The notes beneath the pieces were generated by a model. That model did not search any database. It worked only from the letters and a program-made list of their open reading frames with translations, and was not told where the DNA came from. The position numbers were made by a program, and so were the translations under genes. From a bacterium (GTDB lineage Bacteria > UBA8248), in the NCBI GenBank assembly GCA_965199855.1, contig OZ241326.1, positions 864,001-928,000 of the forward strand: 64,000 nucleotides of DNA. The letters run 5' to 3'. Below are positions 1,714 through 31,383 of the stretch, piece by piece (positions within the stretch are counted from its first letter, which is position 1; the number at the start of each line of letters is the position of its first letter).

Positions 1714-2585
1714 CCGCGCGGCCCGAGGCGCAGAGGAGCCCGCTCGACTTCGCCGCCCTCGCCGCTTGGCTGAGGGAGCGGGGCTTCGAGGCGCGGCTCG
1801 ACGCGGACACCGCGAAAATGGCGGGCGAGAAGACGGGCGCGCCGCGCGAGGAGGTCGTCCGCGAAGCCGACCTCGTCATCGTCTTCGGCGGGGACGGCTC
1901 CATGCTGCGCGCCGCCCACGGCGTCGAGGGGGATTCTCCCCTCCTGCTCGGCATCAACACCGGCCACCTGGGGTTTCTCGCCGACGTGCCGCAGGCCGAC
2001 CTCTATCCCGCGCTCGAGAGAATCCTGATCGAGGGGGAATTCTCCATCGAGTCGCGGATGCGGCTCACGGCCTCGGCGCGCAAGAGCGGGGAGGCGCAGA
2101 AGCTCGCCGATTCGCTGAACGACGTCGTCCTCACCACCGGCCCCCTCGCGCGCATGGTGGAATACCGCATCGACATGGAGGGCCGCCACCTGGGCTACTT
2201 CCGCGCGGACGGCCTCATCGTCGCCACGCCCACGGGATCCACCGCCTACTCCCTCTCGGCGGGCGGGCCGCTCGTGCTGCCGGACATGAACGTGACGCTC
2301 ATCAACCCGATATGCCCGCACACGCTCAGCAACCGGCCCATCGTCGCGCCGGCGGAGGCGGCCATCGAAATCACCATCTTCCCGGACACCGAGGCGCAGG
2401 GGCGCGAAGTGCTCCTCACGCTGGACGGCTTTCCCGGCTGCGAGCTCGAGGCCGGCGATTCGGTGCGAATCCGCAAGAGCCGCTCGCCCGCGCGAATCAT
2501 CCGCCCGAAGGGCGCGGACTTCTTCGGGACCCTGCGGGAGAAGCTGCTCTGGGAGACGCATCCGCGCGGCGGGCGGAGGGGCTGA
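1683..2585 (+). CDS. nadK: NAD kinase
   Basis: GGDGS, GHLGFL, ND, DGLIVATPTGSTAYSLSAGGP motifs; upstream of recN. Confidence 0.95.
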   Translation: MPTNIKRIALTARPEAQRSPLDFAALAAWLRERGFEARLDADTAKMAGEKTGAPREEVVREADLVIVFGGDGSMLRAAHGVEGDSPLLLGINTGHLGFLADVPQADLYPALERILIEGEFSIESRMRLTASARKSGEAQKLADSLNDVVLTTGPLARMVEYRIDMEGRHLGYFRADGLIVATPTGSTAYSLSAGGPLVLPDMNVTLINPICPHTLSNRPIVAPAEAAIEITIFPDTEAQGREVLLTLDGFPGCELEAGDSVRIRKSRSPARIIRPKGADFFGTLREKLLWETHPRGGRRG

Positions 2586-2592
2586 GTCCGCC

Positions 2593-4305
2593 ATGCTCCG
2601 CCTGCTGAGAATCACGAACCTCGCCATCATCGACGACCTGGAGATCGCCTTCGGCCCCGGCCTCAACGTCCTCACGGGCGAGACGGGGGCGGGAAAATCC
2701 ATCATCTTCGACGCCCTGAACCTCACCCTCGGCGCGCGGGCGAGGGGCGACCTCGTTCGCGCCGAAACCCGGGAGGCCGTCGTCGAGTCCGCATTCGCGC
2801 TTCCGCGGACGCCGGGCGGCCTCGCGGCGCGCGCCCTGCTGGAGGAGGCGGGCGTGGAGGTCGAGGAGGAAGAGCTCATCGCGCGGCGGCGGGTCGCGGC
2901 GGCGGGCGGAAGCCGCATCTACCTGAACGGCGCGCTGGGAACGGCCTCGCTGCTCTCCGCCGTGGGCGAGCGCCTCGTGAACATCCACGGCCAGCACGCC
3001 CACCAGAGCCTCCTTCGTCCCGCCGGCCACCTGGGGCTGCTGGACGACTTCGCGGGAACGACGGCGCGAAGGGACGCCCTGGGGGGGCTTTTGCGAAAAC
3101 TCCGCGCGGCCCAGGAGGCGCTCGGCGCGCACCGAGAGGGCGTCAGGGAGCGCGCCCGGCGGGAGGACCTGCTCCGCTTCCAGGTCGAGGAGCTGGAAAA
3201 CGCCGCTCTGCGCGCGGGCGAACTCGCGGAGATCGAGGCGGAACTGCCGAGGCTCCGGAACGCGGAGCGCCTGGAGAGCGGCGCGGCCTCCCTGTATGCG
3301 CGGCTCTACGAGGCGGAAGGGGCCATCGTCGAGAAAACGGGCGAGCTACGCCGGGAGCTCGAGGGCATGAGCGGCCTGGATGAATCCCTGCGCCCGCTGC
3401 TGGAGGAGGCCGCCTCCGCCCAGGCGCAGCTGGAAAGCCTCGCCGACGCGCTCCGCGACTACGCGGCGGGAATCGCGCGCGACCCCGGCCGCCTGGAGGC
3501 GCTCGAGGCGAGGCGCGCCCTCATCCGCGAGATGTTTCGCAAATACGGGAGCGACGAGGCGCAATGCCTCGCCTTTCTCGAGGCCTGCCGCGAGCAGCTC
3601 GCGGCGATCGCGGACGAGACGGGAGCCGAGGCGCGGCTCGCCGGGGAGCGCGACGCGCTGAGGGCGCAAGTCGCGGAAGCCGCCCTCGCCCTCTCGGAGA
3701 AGCGGGGGCGCGCCTCGCGGAAGCTCGACTCAGGGATGGAGAAGGGGCTGGGCGAGCTCGGGCTTTCGGGGGCGAAATTCCGGACCCTGCTGTCGCGTCA
3801 GGAGGACGCGGCGGGCTTCGTTCAGGCGGACGGCCTGCGCGTGGCGGTTCGCGCCGACGGAATCGACCGCGCCGAGTTCCACTTCTCGCCCAACCCCGGC
3901 GAACCCCCGCGCCCTCTGAGCCGCGTCGCCTCGGGCGGCGAGCTCTCGCGGCTGATGCTCGCCCTCGAATCCGTCCTGCGGCGCGCCGACCTCATCCCCA
4001 CCCTGATCTTCGACGAGGTGGACGCAGGCATCGGTGGGGCGGTGGCCGAGGTGGTGGGGCGGAAGCTCAAGGGGGTGTCGGAGAGCCACCAGGTCATCGT
4101 CGTCACCCACCTGCCGCAGGTCGCCAGCCTGGGGGATCGCCATTTCCGCATCGAGAAGCGGGTCGCCGGGGGGCGCACCCTCACGAAAATCAAACTCCTC
4201 GAAGGCGAGGACAGGGTGGAGGAGATCGCCCGCATGGGAACGGGGCTTTCCATCACCGACGCCGCCCGCGAACACGCGCGCGAGATGCTCGGCAGCGCGG
4301 GGTGA
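2593..4305 (+). CDS. recN: DNA repair protein RecN
   Basis: TGETGAGKS Walker A, coiled coil, ASGGELSR signature, IFDEVDAG Walker B. Confidence 0.97.
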   Translation: MLRLLRITNLAIIDDLEIAFGPGLNVLTGETGAGKSIIFDALNLTLGARARGDLVRAETREAVVESAFALPRTPGGLAARALLEEAGVEVEEEELIARRRVAAAGGSRIYLNGALGTASLLSAVGERLVNIHGQHAHQSLLRPAGHLGLLDDFAGTTARRDALGGLLRKLRAAQEALGAHREGVRERARREDLLRFQVEELENAALRAGELAEIEAELPRLRNAERLESGAASLYARLYEAEGAIVEKTGELRRELEGMSGLDESLRPLLEEAASAQAQLESLADALRDYAAGIARDPGRLEALEARRALIREMFRKYGSDEAQCLAFLEACREQLAAIADETGAEARLAGERDALRAQVAEAALALSEKRGRASRKLDSGMEKGLGELGLSGAKFRTLLSRQEDAAGFVQADGLRVAVRADGIDRAEFHFSPNPGEPPRPLSRVASGGELSRLMLALESVLRRADLIPTLIFDEVDAGIGGAVAEVVGRKLKGVSESHQVIVVTHLPQVASLGDRHFRIEKRVAGGRTLTKIKLLEGEDRVEEIARMGTGLSITDAAREHAREMLGSAG

Positions 4306-4344
4306 TGCCCAAGGGACGCCCGCCGTCTGGCGGAACGCCGTTTT

Positions 4345-4520
4345 CGCAGGTTCTCCGTAGGGGCGGTTCGGGAACCGCCCGCCGCGTCGGTTGCGTCTCC
4401 GACGGCGCAGGGACGGGTCGCGCAACCCGTCCCTACAAACCCCCTCGCCGCAACGATGGAGAACCCCGAAACCGCAAAGGACAGCCACAGGGGGCTGTCC
4501 CTACGAAACATGAGCCGCCA
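4345..4520 (+). repeat. 176-bp REP-like composite repeat, copy 1
   Basis: Direct repeat of 4941-5116 (about 8 mismatches counted by eye); built of GTAG/CTAC-bounded palindromes such as GTAGGGGCGGTTCGGGAACCGCCC. Confidence 0.9.
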
Positions 4521-4656
4521 TGCGCGCAACGGGGCGCATGAATGCGCCCCCTACGGTGGGCAAACACTGAAAAACGCGCCGAGAGCGCCATCGCTTGCAA
4601 CTCGTTTTCACGGGAAATCTGTGGTAAAGATCAGCAGACCAACTGGAGAAAAAACG

Positions 4657-4803
4657 ATGAGCCGCGCCGTGACCGAGAACATGGCGACCAAGGCCGATCT
4701 CAAAGCCGAGCTCTCGGCCCTTGAGCAACGAATCACCATCCGGCTGGGCGGGCTCATCGTGGCTGGCGTCGGCTTCCTCGCCGCCCTCATCAAGCTGTTC
4801 TGA
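4657..4803 (+). CDS. Small DUF1640/CCDC90-like coiled-coil membrane-anchored protein (48 aa)
   Basis: GGAG RBS; ATKADLKAELSALEQRITIRLGGLIVAGVGFLAALIKLF resembles the DUF1640 C-terminus. Confidence 0.6.
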   Translation: MSRAVTENMATKADLKAELSALEQRITIRLGGLIVAGVGFLAALIKLF

Positions 4804-4860
4804 CGGCCGCCGGGAGAAGCCCCCGCGCCCTTCCCTACCGACGGTCTGTATTCCTTCTCC

Positions 4861-4924
4861 GTAGGGGACGCATATATGCGTCCCGCCGGGAAGCCTCGTC
4901 ATTCCGGCGGAAGCCGGAATCCAG
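4861..4924. repeat. REP-like palindrome plus ATTCC-N-GGAAT (dRS3-type) palindrome
   Basis: GTAGGGGACGCATATATGCGTCCC at 4861-4884; CGTCATTCCGGCGGAAGCCGGAATCCAG at 4897-4924. Confidence 0.75.
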
Positions 4925-4940
4925 AAAGGCGAGCGACCTC

Positions 4941-5116
4941 CGCAGGTTTTCCGTAGGGGCGGTTCGGGAACCGCTCGCCGCGTCGGTTGCGTCTCCGACG
5001 GCGCAGGGACAGGTCGCGCAACCCGTCCCTGCGAACCCCCTCGCCGCAACGATGGAGAACCCCGAAACCGCAAAGGACAACCACAGGGGGCTGTCCCTGC
5101 GAAACATGAACCGCCA
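4941..5116 (+). repeat. 176-bp REP-like composite repeat, copy 2
   Basis: Near-identical to 4345-4520. Confidence 0.9.
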
Positions 5117-5218
5117 ATCCGCGCGGGGGCGCATGGTGGACAAGCCGCCTTGTTCGGCGCGCATGAGTGCGCCCCCTGCGGGCGGGCGGCGCGTGAAAAA
5201 GCGCGGCGGGGGCGGGCG

Positions 5219-6358
5219 TCAGCCCTCAAGCAGCCTCAACTGCGATCCGAATTTCACGCCCGCGACCTCGCAGGCGGTTTGGATGTATTGCCGCTTTAGG
5301 GCTGTATTGTTGTTGGTCGCCAGCCACCAGCCGTTCCCCAGGTTGCGTGATGCGTTCTGCGCCAATTCTGGATTGGCATAGAGATCGTTGCGGTTGCGAG
5401 CTACCAATCGGCGCTTTGGAGCGCCATCCGCCGTTTTCTGCTTCCCCTCTACTTGAGGCGCGAAGCGCGCCATGAATTCTGAATCCCTGTCCGCAAACGC
5501 TTTCAGTATTCCAGTGAGTGCTTCTATGGCAGTTTTGGTATCGAAGCGTTCGCTATCAAGGATGAAGCCGCGGATTTTGGATTTCCCATCGTCCTGTGGC
5601 GGCGGCTCAGATCGGGGCCGCTTCTCCGCCTTGCCAGCCGAAGTTTCTGACGCGGGAAGGGGTGGCTTTTGAGTCTGTGTAACGCCGCTATCGGCGAGTT
5701 CCTTCAAAAACCTCTCCACGTCGTCTGCTTCCGGCCTGGTTCCACACGCGCTCGCCACTTCTTCGGCGAGCAGGTCTCGAAGCATTTCATCCGGGCCTTC
5801 CAGCAGTTTTCGCCAGATGCCCTGAATGGCCTTGCGCGCCTTTGCTCGCTCCTTGGCACTCTCGTGCCGCCGCTCCGCCTCTTGGCGGGCTTTCCCCGAA
5901 ACGACCCGATCTTTCCCAAAATGCTTTCCGAAAAACTCCACGTATTCGGGCATCCTCTCCTCGCGCTTTAACTCCGCCCGATAGAAACGCCGCTCGGCGG
6001 GGTCGCCTTCCGCCATGCTGAGATAGAAATCCCAGAGATTGCCGTCCGTCAGGATGAGAAAAGGAACTCCCCGGTTGACGGCGTACCCGAACACCTGCTC
6101 CTCCCCGGCAATATCCACGCGGCCGAGTGCCTTGGCTTCGATGAAAACTAAAGGACTGCCGCCATCCCGAAGCAGGGCGTAGTCCACCCGACCCGCGTCG
6201 ACGGAAAATTCCACCCTGACCTCGGCAGGGTCTGTGTCATCCCAGTCCAGAGCACTCAGAATCGGATCGATGACGGACTTCTTCACCTGCGCCTCGTTCT
6301 CCAGCGCGCCGGAGCGGATGTGCCCGACCGCCTTTTTCAGGGCTTCTTCGAGGCTCAT
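5219..6358 (-). CDS. HsdR N-terminal-type PD-(D/E)xK restriction endonuclease with C-terminal SeqA-like domain
   Basis: NEAQVK..IDPIL..LDWD, RVDYAL, FIEAK, QVFGYA, ILTDG..WDFY; C-terminal WWLATNNNTALK resembles SeqA WVITNTNTGRK; lower GC than flanks. Confidence 0.75.
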   Translation of the reverse strand: MSLEEALKKAVGHIRSGALENEAQVKKSVIDPILSALDWDDTDPAEVRVEFSVDAGRVDYALLRDGGSPLVFIEAKALGRVDIAGEEQVFGYAVNRGVPFLILTDGNLWDFYLSMAEGDPAERRFYRAELKREERMPEYVEFFGKHFGKDRVVSGKARQEAERRHESAKERAKARKAIQGIWRKLLEGPDEMLRDLLAEEVASACGTRPEADDVERFLKELADSGVTQTQKPPLPASETSAGKAEKRPRSEPPPQDDGKSKIRGFILDSERFDTKTAIEALTGILKAFADRDSEFMARFAPQVEGKQKTADGAPKRRLVARNRNDLYANPELAQNASRNLGNGWWLATNNNTALKRQYIQTACEVAGVKFGSQLRLLEG

Positions 6359-6495
6359 TTTTTCAAAAATTCCTCTCCTTCGGACCTCAAAGGCGCGGGC
6401 GGCTCTTGAAAACCCTCTCCGCGTGAATCATGGACATGGCGGAGGCCGCATGGTCGCATACAGGCGACACGCCCGCAAGTTGGAGCCATTATGAA

Positions 6496-6703
6496 GCAGG
6501 GACAGGTCGCGCGACCTGTCCCTGCGATTCAAACCGCCACGCGGGGCGCATATATGCGTCCCCTACGAACAACCCCGGAAGCCCGACATTCCTTGCGGAG
6601 CCCGCCCCTTCATCTCCTCCCGCGGGGACAACCACGGGGGGTTGTCCCTACGAACCATGAGCCGCCAAGCCACGCCCGGGGCGCGCATATATGCGCCCCC
6701 TAT
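6496..6703. repeat. Cluster of REP-like palindromes
   Basis: Perfect 30-bp palindrome GCAGGGACAGGTCGCGCGACCTGTCCCTGC (6496-6525), two GGGGCGCATATATGCG-type palindromes, GGGACAACC..GGTTGTCCCTAC; same family as 4345-5116. Confidence 0.85.
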
Positions 6704-6727
6704 AAGCGGCCCGCGCGCTCCCTCCCC

Positions 6728-8683
6728 CTACTCGTCCTGATACTGCTGGAGACTCTGGAGGACGGAGATGTCCTCGAGCGTGGTGGTGTCGCCGATTCTC
6801 TCCGCGCCCGAGGCGATGTCGCGCAGGAGGCGGCGCATGATCTTCCCGCTCCTCGTCTTGGGCAGGGCGTCGGTGAAGCGCATGTAGTCGGGCCGGGCGA
6901 TGGCGCCGATCTCCTTGACGACCCACTCCTTGAGCTTCTTCTCCAGCGCCTCGTCCTTCCTGTTCGCCCCCTTCATGGTGACGAAGGCGGCGATGCACTC
7001 GCCCTTGATCTCGTGCGGGATGCCCACGCAGGCAGCCTCGGCGACGGCGGGGTTCGCCACCAGCGCGCTCTCCACCTCCATGGTGCCCAGGCGATGGCCG
7101 GAGATGTTGATGACGTCGTCCACCCGGCCCATGATCCACACGTAGCCGTCCTTGTCGCGGCGCGCGCCGTCGCCCGTGAAGTAGTAGCCCTTCACGTCGC
7201 TCCAGTATTGCTCGCGGTAGCGCGCGTCGTCGCCCCAGATGGTGCGCAGCATGGAGGGCCAGGGCCTGCGGATGACGAGCAGGCCGCCGCCCTCGGGCCC
7301 CACGCTCCGCCCCTCCTTCGTCACCACGTCCGGCGCTACGCCGAAGAACGGAAGGGTGGCGGTGCCGGGCTTGGTGGGCGTGGCACCGGGCAGGGGGGTG
7401 ATCATGATGGAGCCCGTCTCGGTCTGCCACCAGGTGTCCACGATGGGGCAGCGCTTCCCGCCGATGACGGCGTGATACCACATCCAGGCCTCGGGGTTGA
7501 TGGGCTCGCCCACCGTCCCCAGAAGCCGCAGGGAGGAGAGGTCGCGCTTCTTCGGGTGCTCGTCGCCCCACTTCATGAAGGCGCGGATGGCGGTGGGGGC
7601 GGTGTAGAAGATGTTGACCCGGTATTTCTCCACGACGTCCCAGAAGCGGCCCGGGTCCGGGTGGTTGGGCGCGCCCTCGTACATGACGGAGGAGGCGCCG
7701 TTCAGCAGGGGCCCATAGACGATGTAGCTGTGCCCCGTCACCCAGCCGATGTCCGCCGTGCACCAGTAGGTGTCCTCGTCCTTCAGGTCGAAGACGTATT
7801 TCGAGGTGAGGCCGGCGCCGCACATGTAGCCGCCCGTGGTGTGCATGATGCCCTTGGGCTTTCCCGTCGTGCCGCTCGTGTAGAGGATGTAGAGGGGATG
7901 CTCCGAGTCGAGCTTCGCCGCGGGGCAGACGGGCGAGGCGTCCGCCATGAGGTCGTGATACCAGTGGTCGCGCCCGCGCTTCATCGTCACCTTGTTGCCC
8001 GCGCGGCGCAGGACGATCATCTTCTTCACCGACTTCGCGCCCTTCACCGCCTCGTCCGCGTTCTTCTTGAGCGGCACCACGCCGCCGCGCCGGAAGCCGC
8101 CGTCCGCCGTGAGGACGGCCTTGGCGCGGCAGTCGTCGATGCGGTCCCTGAGCGAGTTCGCGCTGAAGCCGGCGAACACCACGCTGTGCGGGGCGCCGAT
8201 GCGCGCGCAGGCGAGCATGGCGACCGCCGCCTCCGGCGTCTGCGGCATGTAGATGATGACGCGATCGCCCCTGCGGATGCCCACGCTCTTCATCGCGTTG
8301 GCGAACTTGCACACCTCGCGGTGGAGCTCCTGGTAGGTGAGAATCCGCGAGTCGCCCGGCTCCCCCTCCCAGATGATGGCCGCCTTGTTCTTGCGCCAGG
8401 TGGAGAGGTGGCGATCCAGGCAGTTGTAGGAGACGTTCGTCCGCCCGCCCACGAACCATTTGGCGTGCGGCGCCTTCCACTCCAGCACCTTCCTCCACCT
8501 GTCGAACCAGTGAAACTCGTTCGCCACCCGCGCCCAGAAGCGGGCGGGCTTTTTGATGGATTCCTCATACATTTCCCGGTACTGGGCCATGGATTTGACG
8601 TGGGCGCGCCTGGCGAATTCCGCGCTCGGCCTGAAGACCCGCTTCTCCTGGAGCAAGGTGTCGAACTGCTTGGCGTCGGCCAT
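6728..8683 (-). CDS. acs: Acetyl-CoA synthetase
   Basis: [31 protein letters not shown]. Confidence 0.97.
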
Positions 8684-17375: not shown

Positions 17376-17978
17376 GTGACGAGCATTCAGGCGGACATCG
17401 AGGCCCTGCGCCGGCTCCTGATCGAGAAGGCGTATGAGAAGCGGGAGGTGACGCTCGCCTCGGGCCGGCGGAGCGACTTCTACGTCGACTGCCGCCAGGT
17501 CACCCTGCACGGCGAGGGGGCGCGGCTCGTGGGCCGGGTGGTTCTCTCGCGCGTCCGGCGAAGCGGCGTCCGGGCCGTGGGCGGCCCCACCCTGGGGGCG
17601 GACCCGATGGTGACGGCCGTCTCGATGACCGCCGCGCTCGAGGGCCTCGACCTTCCCGCCTTCATCATCCGAAAAGGCGACAAGGGCCACGGGACGCGCA
17701 GCCGCATCGAGGGGATGGGCAACCTGCGAAGCGGCATGAGGGTCGCCATCCTCGAGGACGTGGTGACCACGGCGGCCTCGAGCCTCGCCGCCATCGAGGC
17801 GGCGCGGGAGGCGGGGCTGGAAGTCGCCCGCGTCGTCTGCCTCGTGGACAGGGAGGAGGGCGGACGGGAGAGCCTCGCCGCGCGCGGCTTCGCCCTCGAC
17901 GCCGTCTTCACGAAAACGAGCCTGCTGAGAGGCGGGGGGATGAGAAGAGCGGCAAACGGACAGAAAGGGCGACTCTAG
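17376..17978 (+). CDS. pyrE: Orotate phosphoribosyltransferase
   Basis: TLASGRRSDFYVD, IRK..KGHG, ILEDVVTT PRPP-binding motif. Confidence 0.95.
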   Translation: MTSIQADIEALRRLLIEKAYEKREVTLASGRRSDFYVDCRQVTLHGEGARLVGRVVLSRVRRSGVRAVGGPTLGADPMVTAVSMTAALEGLDLPAFIIRKGDKGHGTRSRIEGMGNLRSGMRVAILEDVVTTAASSLAAIEAAREAGLEVARVVCLVDREEGGRESLAARGFALDAVFTKTSLLRGGGMRRAANGQKGRL

Positions 17979-18078
17979 GCTAATCAAGGCCAGCTCAATA
18001 TATCACGCAATTTTCATCAGAAAAACGACTTCGTAATTCCCTCTTTACCTCCGAGTTCTCGAAACAGAAATTTGCAGT

Positions 18079-19431
18079 TCAAAATAGACGGGGGTCAGCA
18101 GAAAACTTATCTTTCGCCAAGTATTCACGAACCAATTCTACTGACCAAGGTTCTTTCAGTTTTTTCTTTTCAACGTCTTTGGCAAGTTCAGCGGCAGACG
18201 CAAAACTACCGCTGAGAGATGTCCCTCGCCTCTCAAAAAACTCAGTTCTACTAAGCACTACTGCAACTTCGTCTTTCGGTGCGCGCCATTCGTACACGAT
18301 TGCAACATGCTTCGAAGTACTTCCACCGCTATCAAAGTATACCGCTCCAATCAATTTAATGGATGAGGGATCGACTTGGAGTCGCAACTCCTCTTCGAGT
18401 TCCCGGACGGCGCAACTAACTAATGGGGTGCCGTTAACGGCATCTTCGCATCGGACATGTCCACCGGCCCAAATTACGAGCTTCTCATGCAAGGGATTAC
18501 TATTCTTTTTTTCATGGCGGCGAAGACGAAGGACGTCCCCGTTCGCATTCCGAACAACTACTACTGGGAGTGCCTGGACCCGAGAAGCATCATTTTCTAC
18601 CTCGTCTCTAATCAAGAAGTTGCTATCGTCACATTCTGCGAAATATCGGACCAATTCATGCGCTTTGGAATTATCAATAAAATTTCTACCTTCAAATAAT
18701 CCCGTCACGACTTCCTTGGAGCATGAAAGAATATTTTCTGCGATTTGCTCTTCTATCAAACCAAGAATGCAATCAACGACAGTTTCAGCCGTAGATTTTT
18801 GCTCTCTTTTTCTAGAAGTATCAAGGCAATATATCCGAAAATCTTCCCCAAGCTGCGAGGCGCATTGTTTGTTAACTTTCTTAATCTGCTCGAGTATCAG
18901 AGGATTCATGATGGAGCCCTCTTTTTCATCCACAGGGAGTATGCCTTGCTCACGTTTCATTGCGTCCGATGGAGAGACAAGCATTACAAAAACAGCCGAG
19001 ATTCGCTTCCTCCAATCATCAATCGTGAGAAATCTTTGGATGATTTCCCTTTCACTCGAGCGCAAGCGCGAGATTTGCTCCATCATGGTCAGCCAGCAGA
19101 TGGAATCGAAGAGCCCTCGATCGAGAAAAAGAATCTGTGGGTCATCGGCTCGTGGTGGCTCTTGTGTTTTGTCTAAAATCTGAGCGAGTGTCGTACACGC
19201 GGTCCAGATATTAAAATTCGCGTGTTTTTTATCTCGAATTGGGCAAACAGAAGCACGCTCGACAACGACATCCGTCCGAAAACCGGAACGCTTGAGAAAT
19301 GTCTGCACATGCGACAGAGTTGTCGTTTTACCTGCTTTTGGGACTCCCGCAAACTCAATGACCAACGGCTTGCGGGCTTTTTCATCAAATTGTTTCGCTA
19401 AACGCTCTGCTCGTTTTTGAAAATCTCCCAT
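18079..19431 (-). CDS. Thymidylate-kinase-like P-loop domain fused to NUDIX hydrolase
   Basis: IEFAGVPKAGKTT, DRG; C-terminal GGHV...AVRELEEEL Nudix box; AT-rich relative to host. Confidence 0.8.
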   Translation of the reverse strand: MGDFQKRAERLAKQFDEKARKPLVIEFAGVPKAGKTTTLSHVQTFLKRSGFRTDVVVERASVCPIRDKKHANFNIWTACTTLAQILDKTQEPPRADDPQILFLDRGLFDSICWLTMMEQISRLRSSEREIIQRFLTIDDWRKRISAVFVMLVSPSDAMKREQGILPVDEKEGSIMNPLILEQIKKVNKQCASQLGEDFRIYCLDTSRKREQKSTAETVVDCILGLIEEQIAENILSCSKEVVTGLFEGRNFIDNSKAHELVRYFAECDDSNFLIRDEVENDASRVQALPVVVVRNANGDVLRLRRHEKKNSNPLHEKLVIWAGGHVRCEDAVNGTPLVSCAVRELEEELRLQVDPSSIKLIGAVYFDSGGSTSKHVAIVYEWRAPKDEVAVVLSRTEFFERRGTSLSGSFASAAELAKDVEKKKLKEPWSVELVREYLAKDKFSADPRLF

Positions 19432-19541
19432 GTCCGCCCACTCCCATTAATGACTAACTTCCAACGACGCTTTGATCTTCATCGGCATCCTTTCAGATCT
19501 TGATGGGATGGAATCTGCTATTTTCAGAGGGTCATGGGTGC

Positions 19542-19571
19542 ATTATATTCTTGACACCCCTATTGAAGCAA
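19542..19571 (-). promoter_or_regulatory. Putative sigma70 promoter of the kinase-NUDIX gene
   Basis: TTGCTT-N18-TATAAT on minus strand about 110 bp upstream of the ATG. Confidence 0.45.
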
Positions 19572-19865
19572 ATCCACCCCGTTCAATTTCAGGACTTCAA
19601 TGCCCTTATCGGTAATACACTAACAATCTTTTTGGCCTTTCAACTATTTTGAAATTTTCTAAGTATCCCTTTCTCCTCATAATCGGGACTTATTGCAAGG
19701 ACAGGTTTTCACCTTTCGTCATTTTTTAAGAGGTTCTCTTGCCTTTCGTGGTTCAATATTGTGTCAATTCAAGCTACGGGCGTGAACACCACAACGAGGA
19801 TACATACGCGAGGATTTACAGGGAACACCCCCCGCGCGCATTCGCCCGCATTGGCGGGCGGCGGC

Positions 19866-23310: not shown

Positions 23311-23339
23311 TTGTCAGCCCTTCTCCCAAGCCTTATAGT
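23311..23339 (+). promoter_or_regulatory. Putative sigma70 promoter of the dndC-like operon
   Basis: TTGTCA-N17-TATAGT ending 32 bp before the GTG start. Confidence 0.6.
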
Positions 23340-23371
23340 GCCTCCTCCGCTCATTCCGTATCGGGGACGCC

Positions 23372-24520
23372 GTGAGCCTGCTTCCGCAAATGGACGTGGA
23401 TGACGCCGCCGCGCGGCTGGCCTCGGCGCGCGAGGTCATGCGCGCGGAGTATCGCAAGAGGCACCGCGATCCGTGGGTCGTCGCCTACTCCGGCGGCAAG
23501 GATTCGACCCTGCTCCTCCATCTGGCGTGGGAGGTCATGCTGTCGCACCCTCCGGAGGAGCGCAGGCGCGAGATTCACGTCGTGGCGAACGACACCCTCG
23601 TCGAATCGCCCCTCGTCATCCGGCATCTGAAGAAAAGCCTCAACGCCATCCGCAAGGCGGCGGAGAAGGATCGCCTGCCCGTTCGCGTCACCCTGACGAA
23701 GCCCTGCGTCGATCAGACCTTCTGGGTGAACGTGATCGGGCGCGGCTACATTCCGCCGACGCGCAACTTCCGGTGGTGTACGGACAGGATGAAGATAAAG
23801 CCAACCGAATACGTATTGGAAAAACTGATGCTCGCCCACGGGCGCGCCGCGCTGCTGGTCGGAACCCGCAGGAGCGAATCCCAAACCCGCCGCCGCAGCA
23901 TGAAAAAGCGCGGCGTCCGCGCCGACAGGATGAAGCCGCACGGAAGCGTGAAGGGCCTGCGTATGTTCGCGCCCCTCGCCGACCTGCGGGACGAGGACGT
24001 GTGGATGATTCTCATGCAGCTCAAGCCGCCCTGGGGCGGCTCCCACCGCGACCTCGTCACCCTCTACCGCAACGCGGGCGGCGGCGACTGCCCGCTCGTG
24101 CTGAGCAAGGAGGACGCCCCCTCGTGCGGGACGACCTCGCCGCGCTTCGGCTGCTGGACGTGCACCGTCGTCAAGAAGGACAGGAGCCTGCGCGGGCTGA
24201 TCGACTCCGGCCACGAGGAGGAGAAGCTCGAGGCGCTCGCCGACTTCCGGGAGTGGCTCATCGAGCTGCGCGAGAACGACGGAAACCGCATGACGGTGCG
24301 GCGGGACGGCAAGATCAAGCTCAGGACGAACGGAGAGGTCGTCATGGGGCCGTTCCGCTTCGAGGCGCGCGAGGAGATTCTTGCGCGCCTGCGGAAACTG
24401 GAGGGCGAGGTCGGGGAGCGGCTCATCTCGCCATCGGAAATCGAGATGATCGAGGACATCTGGCGGGTCGATAGAATCCGCGAAGACGGGCGGCTGGCGC
24501 TGATAGAGGCGTGCGGATGA
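23372..24520 (+). CDS. dndC: DndC-like PAPS-reductase-family DNA phosphorothioation protein
   Basis: YSGGKDS PP-loop, DTLVESP, TFWVNVIGRGY, FRWCTDRMKI, GTRRSES, CPLV..SCG...RFGCWTCTVV. Confidence 0.88.
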   Translation: MSLLPQMDVDDAAARLASAREVMRAEYRKRHRDPWVVAYSGGKDSTLLLHLAWEVMLSHPPEERRREIHVVANDTLVESPLVIRHLKKSLNAIRKAAEKDRLPVRVTLTKPCVDQTFWVNVIGRGYIPPTRNFRWCTDRMKIKPTEYVLEKLMLAHGRAALLVGTRRSESQTRRRSMKKRGVRADRMKPHGSVKGLRMFAPLADLRDEDVWMILMQLKPPWGGSHRDLVTLYRNAGGGDCPLVLSKEDAPSCGTTSPRFGCWTCTVVKKDRSLRGLIDSGHEEEKLEALADFREWLIELRENDGNRMTVRRDGKIKLRTNGEVVMGPFRFEAREEILARLRKLEGEVGERLISPSEIEMIEDIWRVDRIREDGRLALIEACG

Positions 24521-26298
24521 GTATCTCGAACGGCACCGGGACTATCATCAATACCAAACCGATGATCTTCTCGCATCTGTTTCATACAGGAAGATTTGAG
24601 GTCCCTTGGCACCAACGCCGCTACGACTGGACGAAAGAGCACGTCTGGGAGCTGTTGCGCGATATTGACGAAGCCGTCAGAGAAAAGCGCAAGTGCTATT
24701 TTCTCGGCGCGATCATGCTTTTGCAAAAAGACGAAAGAGTTTGGGAAATCAACGACGGCCAGCAACGCATGGTGACGTTTTCTCTCATCTGCGCCTGCCT
24801 CTGCCGCTTGTTCTATGAAGCGAGCGAACAGCTTCACGAGAACCGCGCACTTCGGGTTTTGTTCAACTTAGATGTGAACAGTACCGCACGATTGCCCGAC
24901 GCCGCCGAACTTGACCCGCGGCTTACACCGCCACGAGACGACAAGACCCGCTACAACCTGATGATTCGAGGAGAAAGCATCGGGACCAACGGCAAGCTCA
25001 CCGATGCGTGGGCGGAAATTGAGCGATTCTTTGAGGGCATGGAAATAGAAAAGCATAAGCAGTTCATGGATTATCTACTCAACAACATCGAAGTCGCGTG
25101 CCTGTACATCCCGGACGACGTTGACCCAAACTCCGTCTATGAAACACTCAACTGCCGGGGAAAACAGCTCGAAGATTTAGACCTGATCCGCAACTACCTG
25201 TATTCCTACTTCAACGCCGCTGAGGAACAACCCCGCCGCGACACAGTGCATGATAATCTCGAAAATATACGCACCCAGCTTAGAACAGACGCAAAAACAG
25301 GTGAATATGCGCGATGTTATTTTCAGTGCAAATATGGCTTTTTGCCAAAGCAAAAATTTTACCGCACGGCCCGCATCAAAATCCGTTCCCTGCTGAGCCC
25401 CGAAAAGCCGGCGGATGACATCTATAATTTGGTGACCGACTTCGCCCGCCAAGAGCGAGTAGAGATTTTTCAGACAATCACAAATCCGAGTGCAACAGAT
25501 TCTCTGATCAAAACCTTTCAAACACATTCCAACTCGAACAGAACCAAGCGAAATTTGTCGATTTTCCTACAGGAACTGAAAAACTATAAAGTAGCGCAAC
25601 CCATGGTGTTCGCGTTGCTAAACCGCTATGTCATGGAATCAAACGCGACAGAGAAGAGGCGTTTGGCGAAGCGCATTCACGGCAACCTGAAACACATTAC
25701 TTCTTTTGTCATGCGGACGGCTTTCGTCGCTCCCAAATTCGAGCCCTCACACTTCGAGAGCGAATTTTCCAGCCTCGCGAAAAAGATCATGTCAGCCGAA
25801 AAGCCTGACAATATCGACATCATGCGCTCCCTAAAAGAGTTTGACGGCACTTATGGAATAATCGACGATGACAGATTCATTGACAAGATGAAGGTTGTCG
25901 AAATGCGAAATACGCGCGATACGAGAAGAAAGCGTTTTCTGCTCGGCGTGAACCACTCCATACAAAGAGACAGTAGCCTGCTCAACGAAACACAGTGCAC
26001 CGTCGAGCATATTTTTCCCCGGTCTGAGGAACATTGGCAGGGCTGGCATAATTTCGAGGAGCATAATCCCGAAGATTGGGTGCATAGGCTTGGCAATCTG
26101 ACGCTACTGGGACAAGAAGACAACAAACCGGGGAGAGACGACAATAGAGATTTCTCTCGCAAAAAAGAAGTTTTCGATCGGAGTGCAATCACGCTTACCC
26201 GAGAATTGCTTGATCGGGAAGATTGGTCTCCGAAAGCGATAACCGCCAGGCAGGAAAAATTGGCGAAAATCGCCGCAAAGGAAGTGTGGTCTTTTTAA
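24517..26298 (+). CDS. DUF262-DUF1524 (GmrSD/SspE-like) NTPase-HNH endonuclease
   Basis: VPWHQRRYDW, DGQQR, ETLNCRG; C-terminal VEHIFP...LGNLTLL...N HNH; ATGA overlap with dndC stop. Confidence 0.88.
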   Translation: MSISNGTGTIINTKPMIFSHLFHTGRFEVPWHQRRYDWTKEHVWELLRDIDEAVREKRKCYFLGAIMLLQKDERVWEINDGQQRMVTFSLICACLCRLFYEASEQLHENRALRVLFNLDVNSTARLPDAAELDPRLTPPRDDKTRYNLMIRGESIGTNGKLTDAWAEIERFFEGMEIEKHKQFMDYLLNNIEVACLYIPDDVDPNSVYETLNCRGKQLEDLDLIRNYLYSYFNAAEEQPRRDTVHDNLENIRTQLRTDAKTGEYARCYFQCKYGFLPKQKFYRTARIKIRSLLSPEKPADDIYNLVTDFARQERVEIFQTITNPSATDSLIKTFQTHSNSNRTKRNLSIFLQELKNYKVAQPMVFALLNRYVMESNATEKRRLAKRIHGNLKHITSFVMRTAFVAPKFEPSHFESEFSSLAKKIMSAEKPDNIDIMRSLKEFDGTYGIIDDDRFIDKMKVVEMRNTRDTRRKRFLLGVNHSIQRDSSLLNETQCTVEHIFPRSEEHWQGWHNFEEHNPEDWVHRLGNLTLLGQEDNKPGRDDNRDFSRKKEVFDRSAITLTRELLDREDWSPKAITARQEKLAKIAAKEVWSF

Positions 26299-26345
26299 GC
26301 TGTTGCATGGAAAGACATTTTGGGAGATATTGAACTGGAGGATGG

Positions 26346-26373
26346 TTGATTCAGTTGTCGCACAAAGTAGTAT
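26346..26373 (+). promoter_or_regulatory. Possible internal promoter before the ParB-like gene
   Basis: TTGATT-N16-TAGTAT in the 124-bp gap. Confidence 0.3.
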
Positions 26374-26422
26374 TCACATGCCAAGAACAAAGGGCGCAAA
26401 ATTATCGTAAGGGGTCAAACCT

Positions 26423-27241
26423 ATGGCAAGGATTGTCGAATATCGGGAAATCCCGCTTGATCAACTGGTCATCAGCAAGGGACAAGCGCGAGTAGAGAAT
26501 GTTCGGCAAGGAATTGAGGATTTGGCCAGGAGCATTGAGGTACAAGGACTTCTGCAACCGATTGTAGTGTGCCCGGCAACGCAGGAAGGAAAATACGAAA
26601 TACTTACGGGGCAACGACGTTTTCTTGCGCATCAAGAACTGAAAAAGGAAACCATCACTGCCGCTGTTCTTGATGAGCGCGTTGAAGAGGAACAAGCCAA
26701 GACCATCTCAATTACCGAAAATCTGATGCGGCGCAAGCTATCCGGGAAAGAACTGATCGATGGAGTCACTTATTTGCACAACAAATACGGGAGTGCAAAA
26801 GCTGTAGCCGAAGCCACGGGCCTACCCTCCAATGATGTCAGGCAATATGTGAAGTATCCGCGGCTAATACCCAAACTGAAAAAAATGGTCGATGACGGTC
26901 TCGACATCAAGGTTGCCTTGAAGGCTCAGGATGCCGCTACAGAAGGCGATGAAGTCAACCACGAAGACGCTATCAAACTAGCGCAGGAAATGCCCCCGAT
27001 GTCTGGCGCCCAACAGAAAAAGCTCGTTCAAGAGCGTAAAAGTCATCCTGACAAACCGATCGATGATGTAATCGAAGACGCGAAAACCGGCTCAAAGATC
27101 ACCCAGGTACTCGCAACCGTAACCCGAAACACGCATGTCGCTATCCAGAAATTCGCCAATGAGGAAGGATATAACCAGGATGAAGCGGCGGCAGTTCTCA
27201 TTGAGGAAGCGTTGATCGGTCGCGGCCTCCTGGAAGAATAG
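26423..27241 (+). CDS. ParB/Spo0J-like protein
   Basis: LARSIEVQGLLQPIVV, YEILTGQRR, ENLMR, HTH region, short C-terminal dimerisation-like segment. Confidence 0.85.
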   Translation: MARIVEYREIPLDQLVISKGQARVENVRQGIEDLARSIEVQGLLQPIVVCPATQEGKYEILTGQRRFLAHQELKKETITAAVLDERVEEEQAKTISITENLMRRKLSGKELIDGVTYLHNKYGSAKAVAEATGLPSNDVRQYVKYPRLIPKLKKMVDDGLDIKVALKAQDAATEGDEVNHEDAIKLAQEMPPMSGAQQKKLVQERKSHPDKPIDDVIEDAKTGSKITQVLATVTRNTHVAIQKFANEEGYNQDEAAAVLIEEALIGRGLLEE

Positions 27242-27246
27242 ACTAG

Positions 27247-27969
27247 ATGATCTCCGGTTTGAGTTCCTTGGAACTTGGGCGTCTCCGAATGTCCGTGGGC
27301 TACGGAGCAAACAAGAAGGGCCGACTTCTCTCTCCCATAGAAGTTGCTTCGCTTCTTCACAATGCGCGCCACGAGGGCGCTTCTCTTAGTGACTGCGCAA
27401 CCGCAATCCACCTTAACGAAACGGGCGCCAGTCGTTTTCTTCGCATTCTAAACCTCCCCCAGGATATTCAGCATCTAATCGACTGGGGAACTCCCCAAAA
27501 TGGCATTGGCTTTTCGACTGCCGTTGAGCTGGCCCGGCTTCAGGATGTTGACGATCAGCGCGCTGTCGCCGACTCGATTCTCTCGATCGGCCTAACCAGC
27601 AAAGAAGTCCGACAAGTCGCGCAACTCCGGATCAGATCGGGGCGCTCCATTGGCGCGTGCGTCAAAGAAGTCTTGGGAATGCGCCCAACTATCGAGAGAC
27701 GCTATGTTTTTATTGGCTCAGTACTTGAGCAGGGCATTGCGGATGCGCTCACCGAGCTTACTCAAGCGGAGAGAGATTCCATCCTTGAATCAGGCATTGA
27801 GCGACTCCATCTTCAAGGAGCATCCGGCCGGCTTGGAAAGCGGCTCTTCACGCTGGTCGGGGACGAGAGCTTTAACGAATCGATGAAAACTGTCGGCAAG
27901 GAGAACATCGAGGAGCAGCTCTGCAACCACATCGCAGAGGCTGTCGGGAATGCCTTCTCCCACCGTTGA
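27247..27969 (+). CDS. Hypothetical protein with ParB-type HTH region but no N-terminal CTPase domain
   Basis: LSPIEVA...SRFLRILNLPQDIQ...GFSTAVELARL resembles the ParB central DNA-binding domain. Confidence 0.6.
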   Translation: MISGLSSLELGRLRMSVGYGANKKGRLLSPIEVASLLHNARHEGASLSDCATAIHLNETGASRFLRILNLPQDIQHLIDWGTPQNGIGFSTAVELARLQDVDDQRAVADSILSIGLTSKEVRQVAQLRIRSGRSIGACVKEVLGMRPTIERRYVFIGSVLEQGIADALTELTQAERDSILESGIERLHLQGASGRLGKRLFTLVGDESFNESMKTVGKENIEEQLCNHIAEAVGNAFSHR

Positions 27970-28978
27970 CGTTTTGGGGAGCGGCGCCATCTGCCTCGGC
28001 TCGAAAATAGTATGTGATGGTTTCGCGGAGGGGTATCCTTTCCGCGTGCAGACGCATGTCCACGACGATCACATGAGCGAATTCAACAAGAGCAAGGGGT
28101 TTCAGGACATTTTTATGAGTCCGGAAACCCATGATCTGCTGATCGCGGAATACGACGCGGATATTGAATTTCGCAGCAACCTCCGGCGGGTCGAGCGCAA
28201 CATCGAACATGTCTTTGCCGATGGTTCAAAACTATCTCTTCTGCCCTCCCACCACATGCTTGGTTCGCGCCAAGTCGCGCTCGAGTTGTCCGATGGCTAC
28301 TGCATCGGCTATTCGGGCGATTTCGGTTGGCCTCTTGATGAGGTCATTCAGGTTGACGAACTTGTTGTGGACAGCACCTATGGAAGCCCCCAAAGCGTGC
28401 GTCGCTACACCCAAGCGGAAGCGGAAGAATGTCTGTTGGGTATTGTATGTGAACGATTGCACTATGGCCCCGTCCATATCAAAGCCCACAGGGGAACTAT
28501 CGAGCGCGTCCTCCAGGTCCTGTGGGGCGACATCAGCGTTCCGATTCTCGCGACCGAACGCCTCATTCGGGAAGTGGAAGTCTATCAGAACTACGGATTC
28601 GCTATTGGAACTTTGGTTTCACTTGACTCGGAAGCAGGCCAATCCGCCGTGAAGGAGCGGGCCTATGTTCGATTGTATTCAAAGGGCGATGGCTTCGGAA
28701 ACGAGCCCGCCGGCGGGACGAGCGTCACATGCAGCGCTTATATGACCAACGTCGACCATCCGCTTATTACATATTCAGAGCGGGCTTATGGCGTGGCGCT
28801 GTCCAACCATGCGGATTTTAATGGAACGCTCGCCTATATCGAGGCTACGGGAGCCAAGAAGGTCGTCACGGACAACACGCGAAGGCATGGGTGGGATTTG
28901 GCCATCGCCATCAATCAGCGTCTTGCGGGCGTGGAAGCCAAGCCGTCGTCGAACCTGACCGGATCGCGCTGGCAATAG
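27950..28978 (+). CDS. MBL-fold beta-CASP nuclease
   Basis: THVHDDH, HMLGS, YSGDF, DSTYG, SNHAD motifs; 20-bp overlap with upstream gene. Confidence 0.85.
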   Translation: MPSPTVDVLGSGAICLGSKIVCDGFAEGYPFRVQTHVHDDHMSEFNKSKGFQDIFMSPETHDLLIAEYDADIEFRSNLRRVERNIEHVFADGSKLSLLPSHHMLGSRQVALELSDGYCIGYSGDFGWPLDEVIQVDELVVDSTYGSPQSVRRYTQAEAEECLLGIVCERLHYGPVHIKAHRGTIERVLQVLWGDISVPILATERLIREVEVYQNYGFAIGTLVSLDSEAGQSAVKERAYVRLYSKGDGFGNEPAGGTSVTCSAYMTNVDHPLITYSERAYGVALSNHADFNGTLAYIEATGAKKVVTDNTRRHGWDLAIAINQRLAGVEAKPSSNLTGSRWQ

Positions 28979-29012: not shown

Positions 29013-31052
29013 TCACCCCCCCGGCGGGTCGCAGGGGGCGTAGCGCGAAAAGCGCATGACGAAGGCGGCGCGGCCCTGGGTGGCGGAGCGAAGCGCCGTG
29101 GCGTAGCCGAACATCCTGGCGAGGGGCGCCGAGGCGCGGACGACGCTCACCGGCGAGGCGCCGCCGCGCTCCTCCGTCGCGGATATCCTCCCGCCGCGCG
29201 CGGCGAGGTCGCCCAGGACGGCGCCCAGGAACTCCCCCGGGGTCGTCACCTCCACCGACATGACGGGTTCGAGCAGCCGCCCGCCCGCCGCGCGGCAGGC
29301 CTCCGTGAAGGCGTTCGCCGCCGCGATGGCGAAGGCGGCCTCGGAGGCGCGGGCGGGGTCGTAGTCCGCCTCCAGCAGGCGGACGCGCAGGTCGGTCATC
29401 TCGTAGCCCGCCATCGCCCCGCTCGACGCGGACGCCTCGATGGATTCCAGCGCGGCGGCGGCGAGGCTCGCGGGAATCACGGAGTCCTCCAGCGCGCTCT
29501 CGCGCGAGACGCCCGCCCCGGGCGAAGGCGCCACGCCCACGCGCACCCGCGCGAAGCGGGGCTCGCCCGCCAGCTCGCGCTCGAAGACGGACTCCGCCTC
29601 AGCCTCCTTCAGGAGCGTCTCCCGATACACCACGCGGGGGGCGCCGACGCGGACGCGGACGCCGAATTCCTCCTCCAGGCGGCGCGCGAGCACCTCCAGA
29701 TGGAGCTCGCCCATGCCGCTCATCACCGTCTGGCCGGACTCCGCGTCCGCCCGCGCCAGGAAGGTGGGGTCCTCCGCCTGGAGCTTCGCCAGCGCCTCGT
29801 CCAGCTTCCGCGCGCCCGCGGCGTCCGCGGGCTCCGCCGCGACCGAGATGACGGGCCGGGGCGCGCGAATGGACTCGAACGCCACCGGCTCCCTCCCGTC
29901 GCAGAGGGTGTCGCCCGTGGCGGCCTCCTTCAGGCCCGCCGCCGCCACGATGTCGCCCGGCCCGGCGGACTCCAGGCGCTCGCGCTTGTGGGAATACATC
30001 CTGAAGATCCGGGCGAGGCGCTCGGCGCGCCCCCGCGCGGGGTTCCACAGGCTCTCGCCCGCCCTGGCCGAGCCGCTGTACACCCTCAAATAGGTGAGGC
30101 GCCTGCCCTCGTCCATCTGCACCTTGAAGGCGAGGGCGGAGAAGGGGGCGTCCTCCGTCGGCGGGCGGACGGCGCGCTCCCCGTCCCCGGGCCGCGCGCC
30201 GCTCGCGGGGGGGACGTCCGCCGGCGAGGGCAGATAGTCCACCACGGCGTCCAGCAGGGGCTGCGCGCCCATGCTCCTGAGAGAGGAGCCGCAGAAGACG
30301 GGCACGAGCTCGCCCGCGAGCACGGCGCGCCGCAGCGCCGCCTTCACCGCGCCGGCGTCCGCGCGGCCGTCCTCCAGATACGCCTCCATCAGGGCTTCGT
30401 CGCAGTCCGCCGCCGCCTCGACGAGCGCCTCCCGCAGCCGCGCCGCCTTCTCCGCGAGCGCCCCGGCGGGCCGGGAGCGGCGGAGCGCCCCCTCCTCCCA
30501 GGTGAGAAAATCGCCGCTCAGCGCCTCGACCTGGCCGGCGTAGCGCTCCCCCTCCCCGTCGGGCCAGTGCATGAGCGCGGGCCTGGCGCCCAGTTTCTCG
30601 GCCATCATCTCCACCGTCCGCTCGAAGTCGGCGCCCAGGCGATCCATCTTGTTGATGAAGGCGATTCTCGGCACGCCGAACCTGTCCGCCTGGCGCCAGA
30701 CGGCCTCGCTCTGCGGCTCGACGCCCTCCACCGCGCTGAAAATCGCGACGGCGCCGTCCAGCACGCGCAGGCTTCTTTCCACCTCGATCGTGAAGTCCAC
30801 GTGGCCGGGGGTGTCGATGATGGTGATCTCGTGCCCCGCCCAGACGGTGGTGATGGCCGCCGAGGTGATGGTGATGCCGCGCTCGCGCTCCTGGCGCATC
30901 CAGTCCATGGTCGCCGAGCCGTCGTCCACCTCGCCGAGGCGGTGCACGGCGCCCGAGCAGAACAGCATCCGCTCGGTGGTCGTCGTCTTCCCGGCGTCGA
31001 TGTGGGAGATGACGCCGATGTTTCTTCTCATCGAAAGCGCGGGGCGCTTCAT
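29013..31052 (-). CDS. fusA: Elongation factor G paralog (EF-G2-like)
   Basis: [46 protein letters not shown]; outside the str operon. Confidence 0.88.
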
Positions 31053-31152
31053 CGGAAAATCCCCTCCCCCCGGAGCCGGGGCGCAGGTTACCTTGACGGG
31101 GACGGGACGGGAAAGCGCGGGCGCGCGCCGGGGACGCGCCCGGACGGGGGAA

Positions 31153-31383
31153 TCAGGCGGCCTCGGGCCTCTGCGGGGTTTTGGGATTCCACCCGGCGAA
31201 GGGGAGCTCAGGCGCGGGCGTAAGCCTCGACTCGAGCTCCTCCTGGCGATGGCGCCAGTCCTCATAGGAGATTCGGCGCTGCAGATAGAGGGCGAGGTTC
31301 CTCATGCACGCCTGGTGGATGCGCCTCGAGTTCCGGCTCGTCTCATTCATTCCGTATCCGGGTCTTCGTTCCGTGGTCGCCAT
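31153..31383 (-). CDS. Small hypothetical protein (76 aa)
   Basis: Strong [13 protein letters not shown] 6 nt upstream of ATG; AT-rich upstream region. Confidence 0.55.

Follow-up and report, generated by a model that had tools for sequence, protein, structure and literature searches.

What does a DndC protein do in a genome that encodes neither DndD nor DndE, and what are the genes behind it for? Both questions are raised by a locus in a 64,000-nucleotide stretch of bacterial DNA (lineage UBA8248; assembly GCA_965199855.1, contig OZ241326.1, positions 864,001 to 928,000), which we call the window. Its listing of open reading frames (ORFs) holds five co-directional genes on the + strand that together span positions 23372-28978. 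They code for a short DndC, a GmrSD/DndI-like nuclease, a ParB-family protein, a helix-turn-helix (HTH) protein and a candidate β-CASP nuclease. An initial annotation, made from the letters of the window alone, had proposed that they form a defence system linked to phosphorothioation. Current surveys define phosphorothioate systems by DndC together with DndD (or by SspBCD or BrxPCZL), and a DndC without DndD and DndE falls outside them. We report that the five genes are probably a copy, reduced and mosaic, of a defence cassette that moves horizontally, is based on phosphorothioate and resembles restriction-modification.

Is the DndC really an orphan? Its gene (23372..24520, + strand) encodes a 382-residue PP-loop sulfurtransferase of the 3'-phosphoadenosine 5'-phosphosulfate (PAPS) reductase type, the predicted phosphorothioate writer. 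The protein scores 332 bits against the NCBIfam profile TIGR03183 (cut-off 290.4), covering profile positions 11-361 of 447. It is matched by the PADLOC DndC model at 2.4e-109 and by the SspD model only at 8.2e-8. The motif SGGKDS (residues 40-45) and Cys136, Cys240, Cys252, Cys261 and Cys264 are conserved in at least 90% of 80 aligned DndCs, the window protein and 79 homologues. The host genome is complete, a single contig of 3.04 Mb, and a profile search found no second DndC in it. Neither did it yield a match to DndD (TIGR03185; the positive control in genome G001 gave 546 bits) or to DndE (TIGR03184 and PF08870). The DndE search recovered a DndE in another genome at 97.7 bits, so its negative is meaningful. 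DUF4007/SspB (PF13182) gave no match in the genome, in a search run without a positive control; SspC was not searched separately. No cysteine desulfurase is linked to dndC in the window; two are encoded elsewhere in the genome, 48% and 42% identical to the DndA-like proteins linked to the related loci. The orphan status first proposed from the window therefore extends to the complete genome, which holds no complete dnd locus elsewhere to account for the gene. When nine other genomes with a short-DndC cassette were searched whole, none held a DndD above the cut-off (control, 546 bits). The genome of locus L017 (G008) carries a DndD-like gene at C1:1743441-1745420 that scores 226 bits, just below the cut-off of 245.85. 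Some 1.1 Mb separate it from the short-DndC cassette, and it may be part of another Dnd- or CxC-type system of that genome.

Could the protein instead be a truncated DndC? This was ruled out: the 120 best listed of its 6294 homologues are all short (328-416 residues, most 376-416), at 68-100% identity and from many phyla, and full DndD/DndE clusters too can contain a short DndC. By these comparisons the window DndC is a member of a large family of DndC proteins of about 380 residues. Since Rhizobiales clusters with DndD and DndE contain it, the short form predates the loss of those two genes. Two such clusters, both on Rhizobiales plasmids (L082 and L083), hold a DndC of about 378 residues with a DndD-like AAA ATPase, DndE and a small 'DNA modification system-associated' protein, and also a second AAA ATPase, an FtsK-domain protein and a DGQHR protein. 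The window gene has a ratio of nonsynonymous to synonymous substitution (dN/dS) of 0.17 against its nearest relative (L002) and, on this estimate, is under purifying selection. Its GC content at third codon positions, 0.89, is host-like.

The second gene (24517..26298, + strand; alternative start 24511) encodes the predicted reader and effector of the mark. It combines a DUF262 domain with a DGQQR NTPase motif (GmrSD_N, PF03235, 1.5e-25) and a DUF1524 domain of the HNH type (GmrSD_C, PF07510, 4.6e-25). At 24517-24520 the sequence ATGA joins the start codon of the nuclease to the stop codon of dndC, and overlaps of 4 nt between the two genes are found in several related loci too. The residues D80-G-Q-Q-R84, H498, N527 and N536 are invariant in alignment A3. 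The initial annotation had called this an SspE-like nuclease. The domain architecture agrees with that description; among solved structures, the best relative is DndI (9JFL, E 3.7e-9), ahead of SspE (E 4.7e-5). Among PADLOC models the best is HEC-06, matched end to end at 1.8e-72; the SspE models reach only 1e-13, and the model mREase_IV is matched weakly (1.6e-11).

How firmly are these two genes tied together? We scanned species-representative genomes for DndC, found 567 loci and examined the best 80, nearly all of them from metagenome-assembled genomes (MAGs). A GmrSD-like gene follows DndC in 72 of these 80. The reciprocal scan, started from the nuclease, gave 3 loci with the single protein as query and 97 with alignment A3. 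The 80 of these relatives that we examined all have DndC upstream, directly adjacent on the same strand in 79; in the remaining locus DndC lies 550 nt upstream of a shortened match. DndC without the nuclease thus occurs (8 of 80), and the nuclease without DndC never does in this sample. Such an asymmetry is expected if the nuclease needs the mark. The pairing of an orphan DndC-type writer with a DUF262-DUF1524 reader, first suggested from a single window, is therefore recurrent and tight.

The rest of the cassette recurs as well, in two main forms. A cysteine desulfurase resembling DndA or IscS precedes DndC in 60 of the 80 DndC loci. The ParB, HTH and β-CASP genes are present together in 41, and 40 of those 41 carry an SNF2 helicase core between the nuclease and ParB. 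The first form is accordingly (DndA)-DndC-GmrSD-SNF2-ParB-HTH-βCASP, found in the 41 loci. The second, (DndA)-DndC-GmrSD-DndB-like, lacks the ParB-HTH-βCASP genes. A DndB-like gene with a DGQHR motif is present in 32 of the 80, with or without the trio, and is the downstream partner of DndC-GmrSD in about 25. Many of the 80 loci bear the names of sponge-associated candidate taxa, and the DndC clade crosses many phyla at 60-80% identity. The gene order of the window, which the initial annotation did not recognise as a named system, is thus widespread among the neighbourhoods of its homologues, and we found no named system with this order. Compared with its relatives, the window copy is missing the upstream desulfurase and the SNF2 gene between GmrSD and ParB.

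What are the three proteins at the end of the cassette? The ParB-family protein (26423..27241, + strand, 272 residues) matches PF02195 (2.6e-16) and TIGR00180 (1.1e-20). All parts of the family's make-up are present: the N-terminal ParB/Srx NTPase domain, the GxxRxxA and ENLxR boxes (as the conserved motifs GQRRFLA and ENLxRR) and an HTH. The next protein (27247..27969, + strand, 240 residues) has a ParB-type HTH (PF17762, 1.4e-6) and a small C-terminal alpha/beta domain, without the ParB N-terminal domain. Its AlphaFold model has a predicted local distance difference test (pLDDT) score of 91, and the top Foldseek matches are ParB, Noc and Spo0J over about 110 residues (E 2e-3), confined to the HTH DNA-binding domain. 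The last protein (27950..28978, + strand, 342 residues) has no match in Pfam and only a sub-threshold NCBIfam exonuclease match. Its AlphaFold model (pLDDT 87) retrieves CPSF73, Artemis, SNM1A and Apollo in Foldseek (E ~1e-14, TM-score 0.6-0.76), and H36xH38xD40H41, H102, D141 and H287 are invariant among 20 homologues. Because of these fold matches and invariant motif residues, the last protein is assigned to the metallo-β-lactamase nucleases of the β-CASP group. It has 1199 homologues, mostly unnamed; a tblastn search of plasmid and phage collections gave no match. All three family calls of the initial annotation thus hold. A complex prediction for the HTH and β-CASP proteins scored 0.00, run without controls, and weighs neither way. 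The SNF2 protein of the relatives consists of the helicase core alone and most closely resembles the defence helicases ZorD, DpdE and DrmD.

The initial annotation had supposed that the ParB-family proteins replace DndB, DndD and DndE. The company that the block keeps speaks against this. A scan from the β-CASP side gave 96 relatives; among the 80 examined, DndC lies within 10 kb in 70, and 58 have the short-DndC-GmrSD arrangement. More distant members of the block (47-53% identity) adjoin other writers. In the Poribacteria locus L151 a complete dnd set precedes it: DndC at full length (584 bits), DndD (546 bits) and DndE (98 bits). The DndCs of the canonical DndCDE operons beside the block are only 36-41% identical to the short form. 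Judged by ORF sizes only, a second Poribacteria locus (L163) and one from Gemmatimonadaceae (L141) also have the block after an apparent full-length DndC, DndD and DndE. In a Caldilineaceae MAG (L156) the block directly follows a 282-residue PAPS reductase of another type. As the block follows complete DndCDE operons and is absent from the common DndC-GmrSD-DndB-like variant, an effector fits it better than a substitute for DndD and DndE. The SNF2-ParB-HTH-βCASP block has the appearance of an effector module, not described before and connected with phosphorothioation. We found no description of it in the literature, where the supplementary tables of PMC10853773 and PMC12914056 may list it.

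The surroundings of the block hold further genes of interest. In L151 (11185-13918) and also in L163 the array continues with a GHKL-type ATPase (534 residues, with a BbrUII/HgiDII/MutL-like N-terminus) and a 368-residue protein of the PP_RS20740 family, either of which may be a further block member. In L156 the genes before the block (164-7038) encode a 544-residue protein of no family, a 782-residue GHKL/histidine-kinase-like protein, a 688-residue protein of no family and the 282-residue reductase, which is of the PRK08557 type. This set may be another sulfur-modification system that shares the SNF2-ParB-HTH-βCASP block.

How might the parts work together? A housekeeping cysteine desulfurase of the IscS/NifS type, of which the genome has two candidates, would pass sulfur to the short DndC. 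Through its PP-loop ATP-pyrophosphatase site and its conserved cysteines, DndC would then write phosphorothioate on the cell's own DNA without DndD or DndE. The translationally coupled DUF262-DUF1524 nuclease would read the mark through its DGQQR NTPase, and its HNH domain would nick or cut incoming DNA that is unmarked, following the logic of DndI. ParB and the HTH protein would load on DNA and the β-CASP protein would cut, and the three would make up a second effector tied to the DndC mark; the SNF2 translocase that most relatives have would have been lost here.

What is the history of the window copy? Its nearest relative (L002) has a DndC that is 93% identical in protein sequence, and the flanks of the two loci are syntenic at 82-86% nucleotide identity. 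Homology ends exactly at the stop codon of dndC (window position 24515) and is regained at 29029. Between these points L002 carries an HNH protein and a Sll1717-family P-loop ATPase in place of the four downstream genes. The break at the stop codon is a natural case of effector exchange, cleanly delimited, in which the modification gene has stayed in place. Within the window, DndC and GmrSD have their closest counterparts in DndB-type loci (80% and 73% identical to those of L003), and the trio has its own in SNF2-bearing loci (75%). The DndC tree is a quick IQ-TREE, in which the row L146 was disregarded, being an ORF from the wrong strand with a very long branch. Read from these affinities, the window copy is a recombinant mosaic. 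Its joint is probably the 124-nt gap between GmrSD and ParB (26299-26422), where relatives hold the SNF2 gene.

Some neighbouring features may record other exchanges. Synonymous divergence (dS) between dndC (23372-24520) and its counterpart in L002 (10001-11146) is 0.20, below that of three flanking genes (0.31-0.54), possibly because dndC was recently converted or transferred between the two lineages, or because its codons are more strongly constrained. A second low-GC island (0.45-0.50) lies at 17938-19857. It contains a gene (18079-19431, - strand) for a 450-residue protein with an N-terminal P-loop (AAA_28/MeaB-like), a C-terminal NUDIX domain and no match in PADLOC. At this site L002 carries another insert, of 2.8 kb, with a DNA methyltransferase-like gene in it, and the site looks like another swap hotspot. 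Directly after the cassette, at 29013-31265 on the - strand, is a gene for a 750-residue EF-G paralogue. A Rhizobium phaseoli plasmid likewise has an EF-G gene close to dndC (L083:4875-6836), probably by coincidence.

Could the arrangement be an artefact of assembly? Contigs from other runs, labelled sponge metagenome and belonging to two studies, bridge the junctions at 24520, 26298-26423 and 28978, so this is unlikely. The SNF2-less arrangement itself is present in contigs of other runs at 95-100% identity. One run (X9) has no contig over about 26316-28400, a gap that carries no weight. The runs listed as holding the window stretch number 22, none of them RNA. The transcriptional layout is as the initial annotation had described it: besides the ATGA overlap and the 124-nt gap, ParB and the HTH gene are separated by 5 nt, and the HTH and β-CASP genes overlap by 20 nt. 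A consensus scan recovers the near-consensus promoter as a putative sigma-70-like site (TTGTCA-17-TATAGT, 23311..23339, + strand) with 10 of 12 consensus matches, 33 nt before the dndC start codon. A weaker putative site (26373..26402, + strand; 9 of 12 matches) lies in the gap between GmrSD and ParB. The region has 6 promoter-like sites, against 2.4 +/- 1.8 in shuffled sequences.

Several observations weigh against reading the five genes as a phosphorothioate-based cassette. For canonical DndC, to our knowledge, activity has been demonstrated only together with DndD and DndE. The nearest cultured relatives of the short DndC, on Rhizobiales plasmids (45-51% identity), still adjoin DndD-like and DndE genes. 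The match of the nuclease to DndI is distant (38.9 bits) and covers the C-terminal region only. SNF2, kept by all but one of the trio-bearing loci, is missing here, and the second effector may be crippled. The trio has a promoter-like site of its own, and 10 of 80 β-CASP loci, of which several (L106, L120, L155) sit at the end of a contig, have no detectable DndC; the trio may thus act independently. Finally, in a window of about 70% GC, dndC has a GC content of 0.68 and the downstream genes 0.47-0.55, although this pattern is family-wide: the GC content of GmrSD is equal to or below that of DndC in 73 of the 73 loci holding both. That the low-GC genes are an unrelated later insertion into a dnd remnant was ruled out as a general explanation by this family-wide pattern and the near-universal pairing.

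Four other explanations deserve weighing. The locus could hold two independent neighbours, a two-gene DndC-GmrSD system and a separate defence or DNA-handling module (ParB-HTH-βCASP, with SNF2 elsewhere) that travels with it in a hotspot and ignores the mark. The second promoter-like site would suit this, as would the inverted or displaced position of the trio relative to DndC-GmrSD in several loci, the 10 β-CASP loci without a DndC match and the different lineages from which recombination joined the two halves. We nevertheless think it unlikely, because the block keeps DndC within 10 kb in 70 of 80 loci and does so with two kinds of DndC, the short one and the canonical one with DndD and DndE, and with the PAPS reductase of L156. 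Chance co-location in an island would not follow one enzyme family over such divergence, and several of the exceptions lie at contig ends. One version of the view taken in the initial annotation, that ParB and the HTH protein belong to the writer and choose sites for a DndC without DndD and DndE by NTP-driven DNA loading or nicking, has a precedent in the ParB-like DpdB, which aids DpdA in inserting preQ0 into DNA according to PMC12839542. It also accommodates the absence of DndD and DndE here and the fact that every cassette variant has at least one ParB-superfamily NTPase (the DUF262 domain of GmrSD, the DndB-like DGQHR protein or ParB). A substitute would be needless after the complete DndC-DndD-DndE of L151, however, and about 25 of the 80 loci combine DndC-GmrSD with a DndB-like gene and have neither ParB nor HTH. 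The block, moreover, always comes with a nuclease and usually with a translocase, the make-up of an effector. This second explanation strikes us as quite doubtful.

Is the window copy simply a decaying remnant, a recombinant without a linked desulfurase and SNF2 that may no longer defend? In the nearest relative the cassette behind dndC has already been exchanged in full, and the missing SNF2, kept in 40 of 41 trio loci, has no homologue anywhere in the genome. Against decay, none of the five frames is interrupted, no invariant catalytic column has been lost and dndC has the low dN/dS given above. The same SNF2-less arrangement in other runs points the same way, and SNF2 is also missing in another lineage (L078/L121). 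Housekeeping desulfurases can substitute for DndA, as PMC12839542 and PMC12914056 indicate. Decay is accordingly an improbable account of the locus. We give equally little credence to a different chemistry or logic, in which the short DndC makes some other sulfur modification, or GmrSD works as a plain type IV enzyme that attacks modified phage DNA and has no need of DndC. Cutting modified DNA is the classical activity of GmrSD-family enzymes, the nuclease has its weak mREase_IV match, and the short DndC, whose profile match stops about 85 positions before the C-terminal end, has no solved relative at E<=0.001. Yet it scores above a curated equivalog cut-off, Rhizobiales plasmids carry short DndCs within DndD/DndE clusters that are otherwise canonical, and the presence of DndC upstream in all 80 nuclease-clade loci argues for dependence.

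If the five genes are a phosphorothioate-based cassette, how far does the conclusion reach? Tentatively, we propose that the short DndC may be a self-sufficient phosphorothioate writer that forms a two-gene restriction-modification unit with the overlapping DndI-like nuclease and moves freely between phyla in sponge microbiomes. In the same proposal SNF2-ParB-HTH-βCASP would be an undescribed phosphorothioate-dependent restriction machine that plugs into at least three kinds of PAPS-reductase system, a new class beside DndFGH, PbeABCD, SspE/SspFGH, DndI and TdpAB. Were the short DndC to write alone, the minimal requirement for phosphorothioate chemistry in the Dnd lineage would change, and a compact tool would be at hand. 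Were the block to read the mark, it would represent a new effector class that joins a ParB clamp-type protein to an Artemis/CPSF-like nuclease. The adjacency of DndC and DUF262/DUF1524 is already noticed in print, as uncharacterised. A 2019 paper on sponge Thaumarchaeota reports dndA-, dndB- and dndC-like genes, the dndB-like ones with DUF262/DUF1524 (PMC6790972), and a 2026 paper lists the dndC-DUF262 neighbourhood as an uncharacterised candidate (PMC12914056).

How, then, does the locus compare with known systems? Of the Dnd system proper (DndABCDE) it has DndC and, elsewhere in the genome, a desulfurase; DndD and DndE are absent. A closer counterpart is IscS-DndBCDE-DndI of Salmonella enterica Cerro 87, in which the DUF262-DUF1524 protein DndI senses phosphorothioate and is toxic without the mark (PMC11662687). 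Both have a DndC-type writer and a single DUF262 (DGQQR)/DUF1524 (HNH) nuclease (about 596 residues), and in both a housekeeping desulfurase can supply sulfur. Unlike the Salmonella system, the window has no DndB, DndD or DndE; its DndC is short, its nuclease only remotely similar to DndI and encoded by a gene that overlaps dndC, and it has the additional ParB-HTH-βCASP genes. SspABCD-SspE likewise joins a writer of the PAPS-reductase family to a phosphorothioate-sensing DUF262/DUF1524 nuclease; it differs in that the window has no DUF4007/SspB match, its writer scores as DndC rather than SspD, and SspE chains are about 770 residues long.

A published precedent for a single-gene writer is the Tdp system (An et al. 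2025, Nat Chem Biol), in which, according to PMC12914056, tdpC alone suffices for phosphorothioate synthesis. TdpABC is alike in this one respect: single-gene synthesis, as there described, is the logic that we propose for a DndC without DndD and DndE. The window DndC has no match in NCBIfam, PADLOC or the PDB beyond DndC-type models. For restriction, Tdp reportedly relies on TdpAB, a hexameric translocase with a nuclease rather than a GmrSD.

The block behind the nuclease resembles DndFGH and PbeABCD in its plan: both are blocks directly downstream of dnd modification genes, as the block is in L151, and combine a helicase or translocase with DNA-binding parts and a nuclease. The parts themselves differ. 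PbeABCD consists of an HKD nuclease-SF2 helicase, a small protein, a CxC ABC ATPase and a DndE-like protein, and its descriptions (PMC6459918, PMC10853773) name no ParB or β-CASP. That the four-gene block is PbeABCD was ruled out on this difference in domain content. DndFGH has a kinase-like protein, a winged HTH protein and a giant HerA/FtsK-restriction endonuclease protein, again with no ParB or β-CASP in its descriptions. The nuclease, finally, shares with HEC-06 and the GmrSD type IV enzymes an N-terminal DUF262 with DGQQR and a C-terminal DUF1524 with HNH. Those are treated as single-gene systems, whereas the clade of the window nuclease is preceded by DndC in every one of the 80 loci examined.

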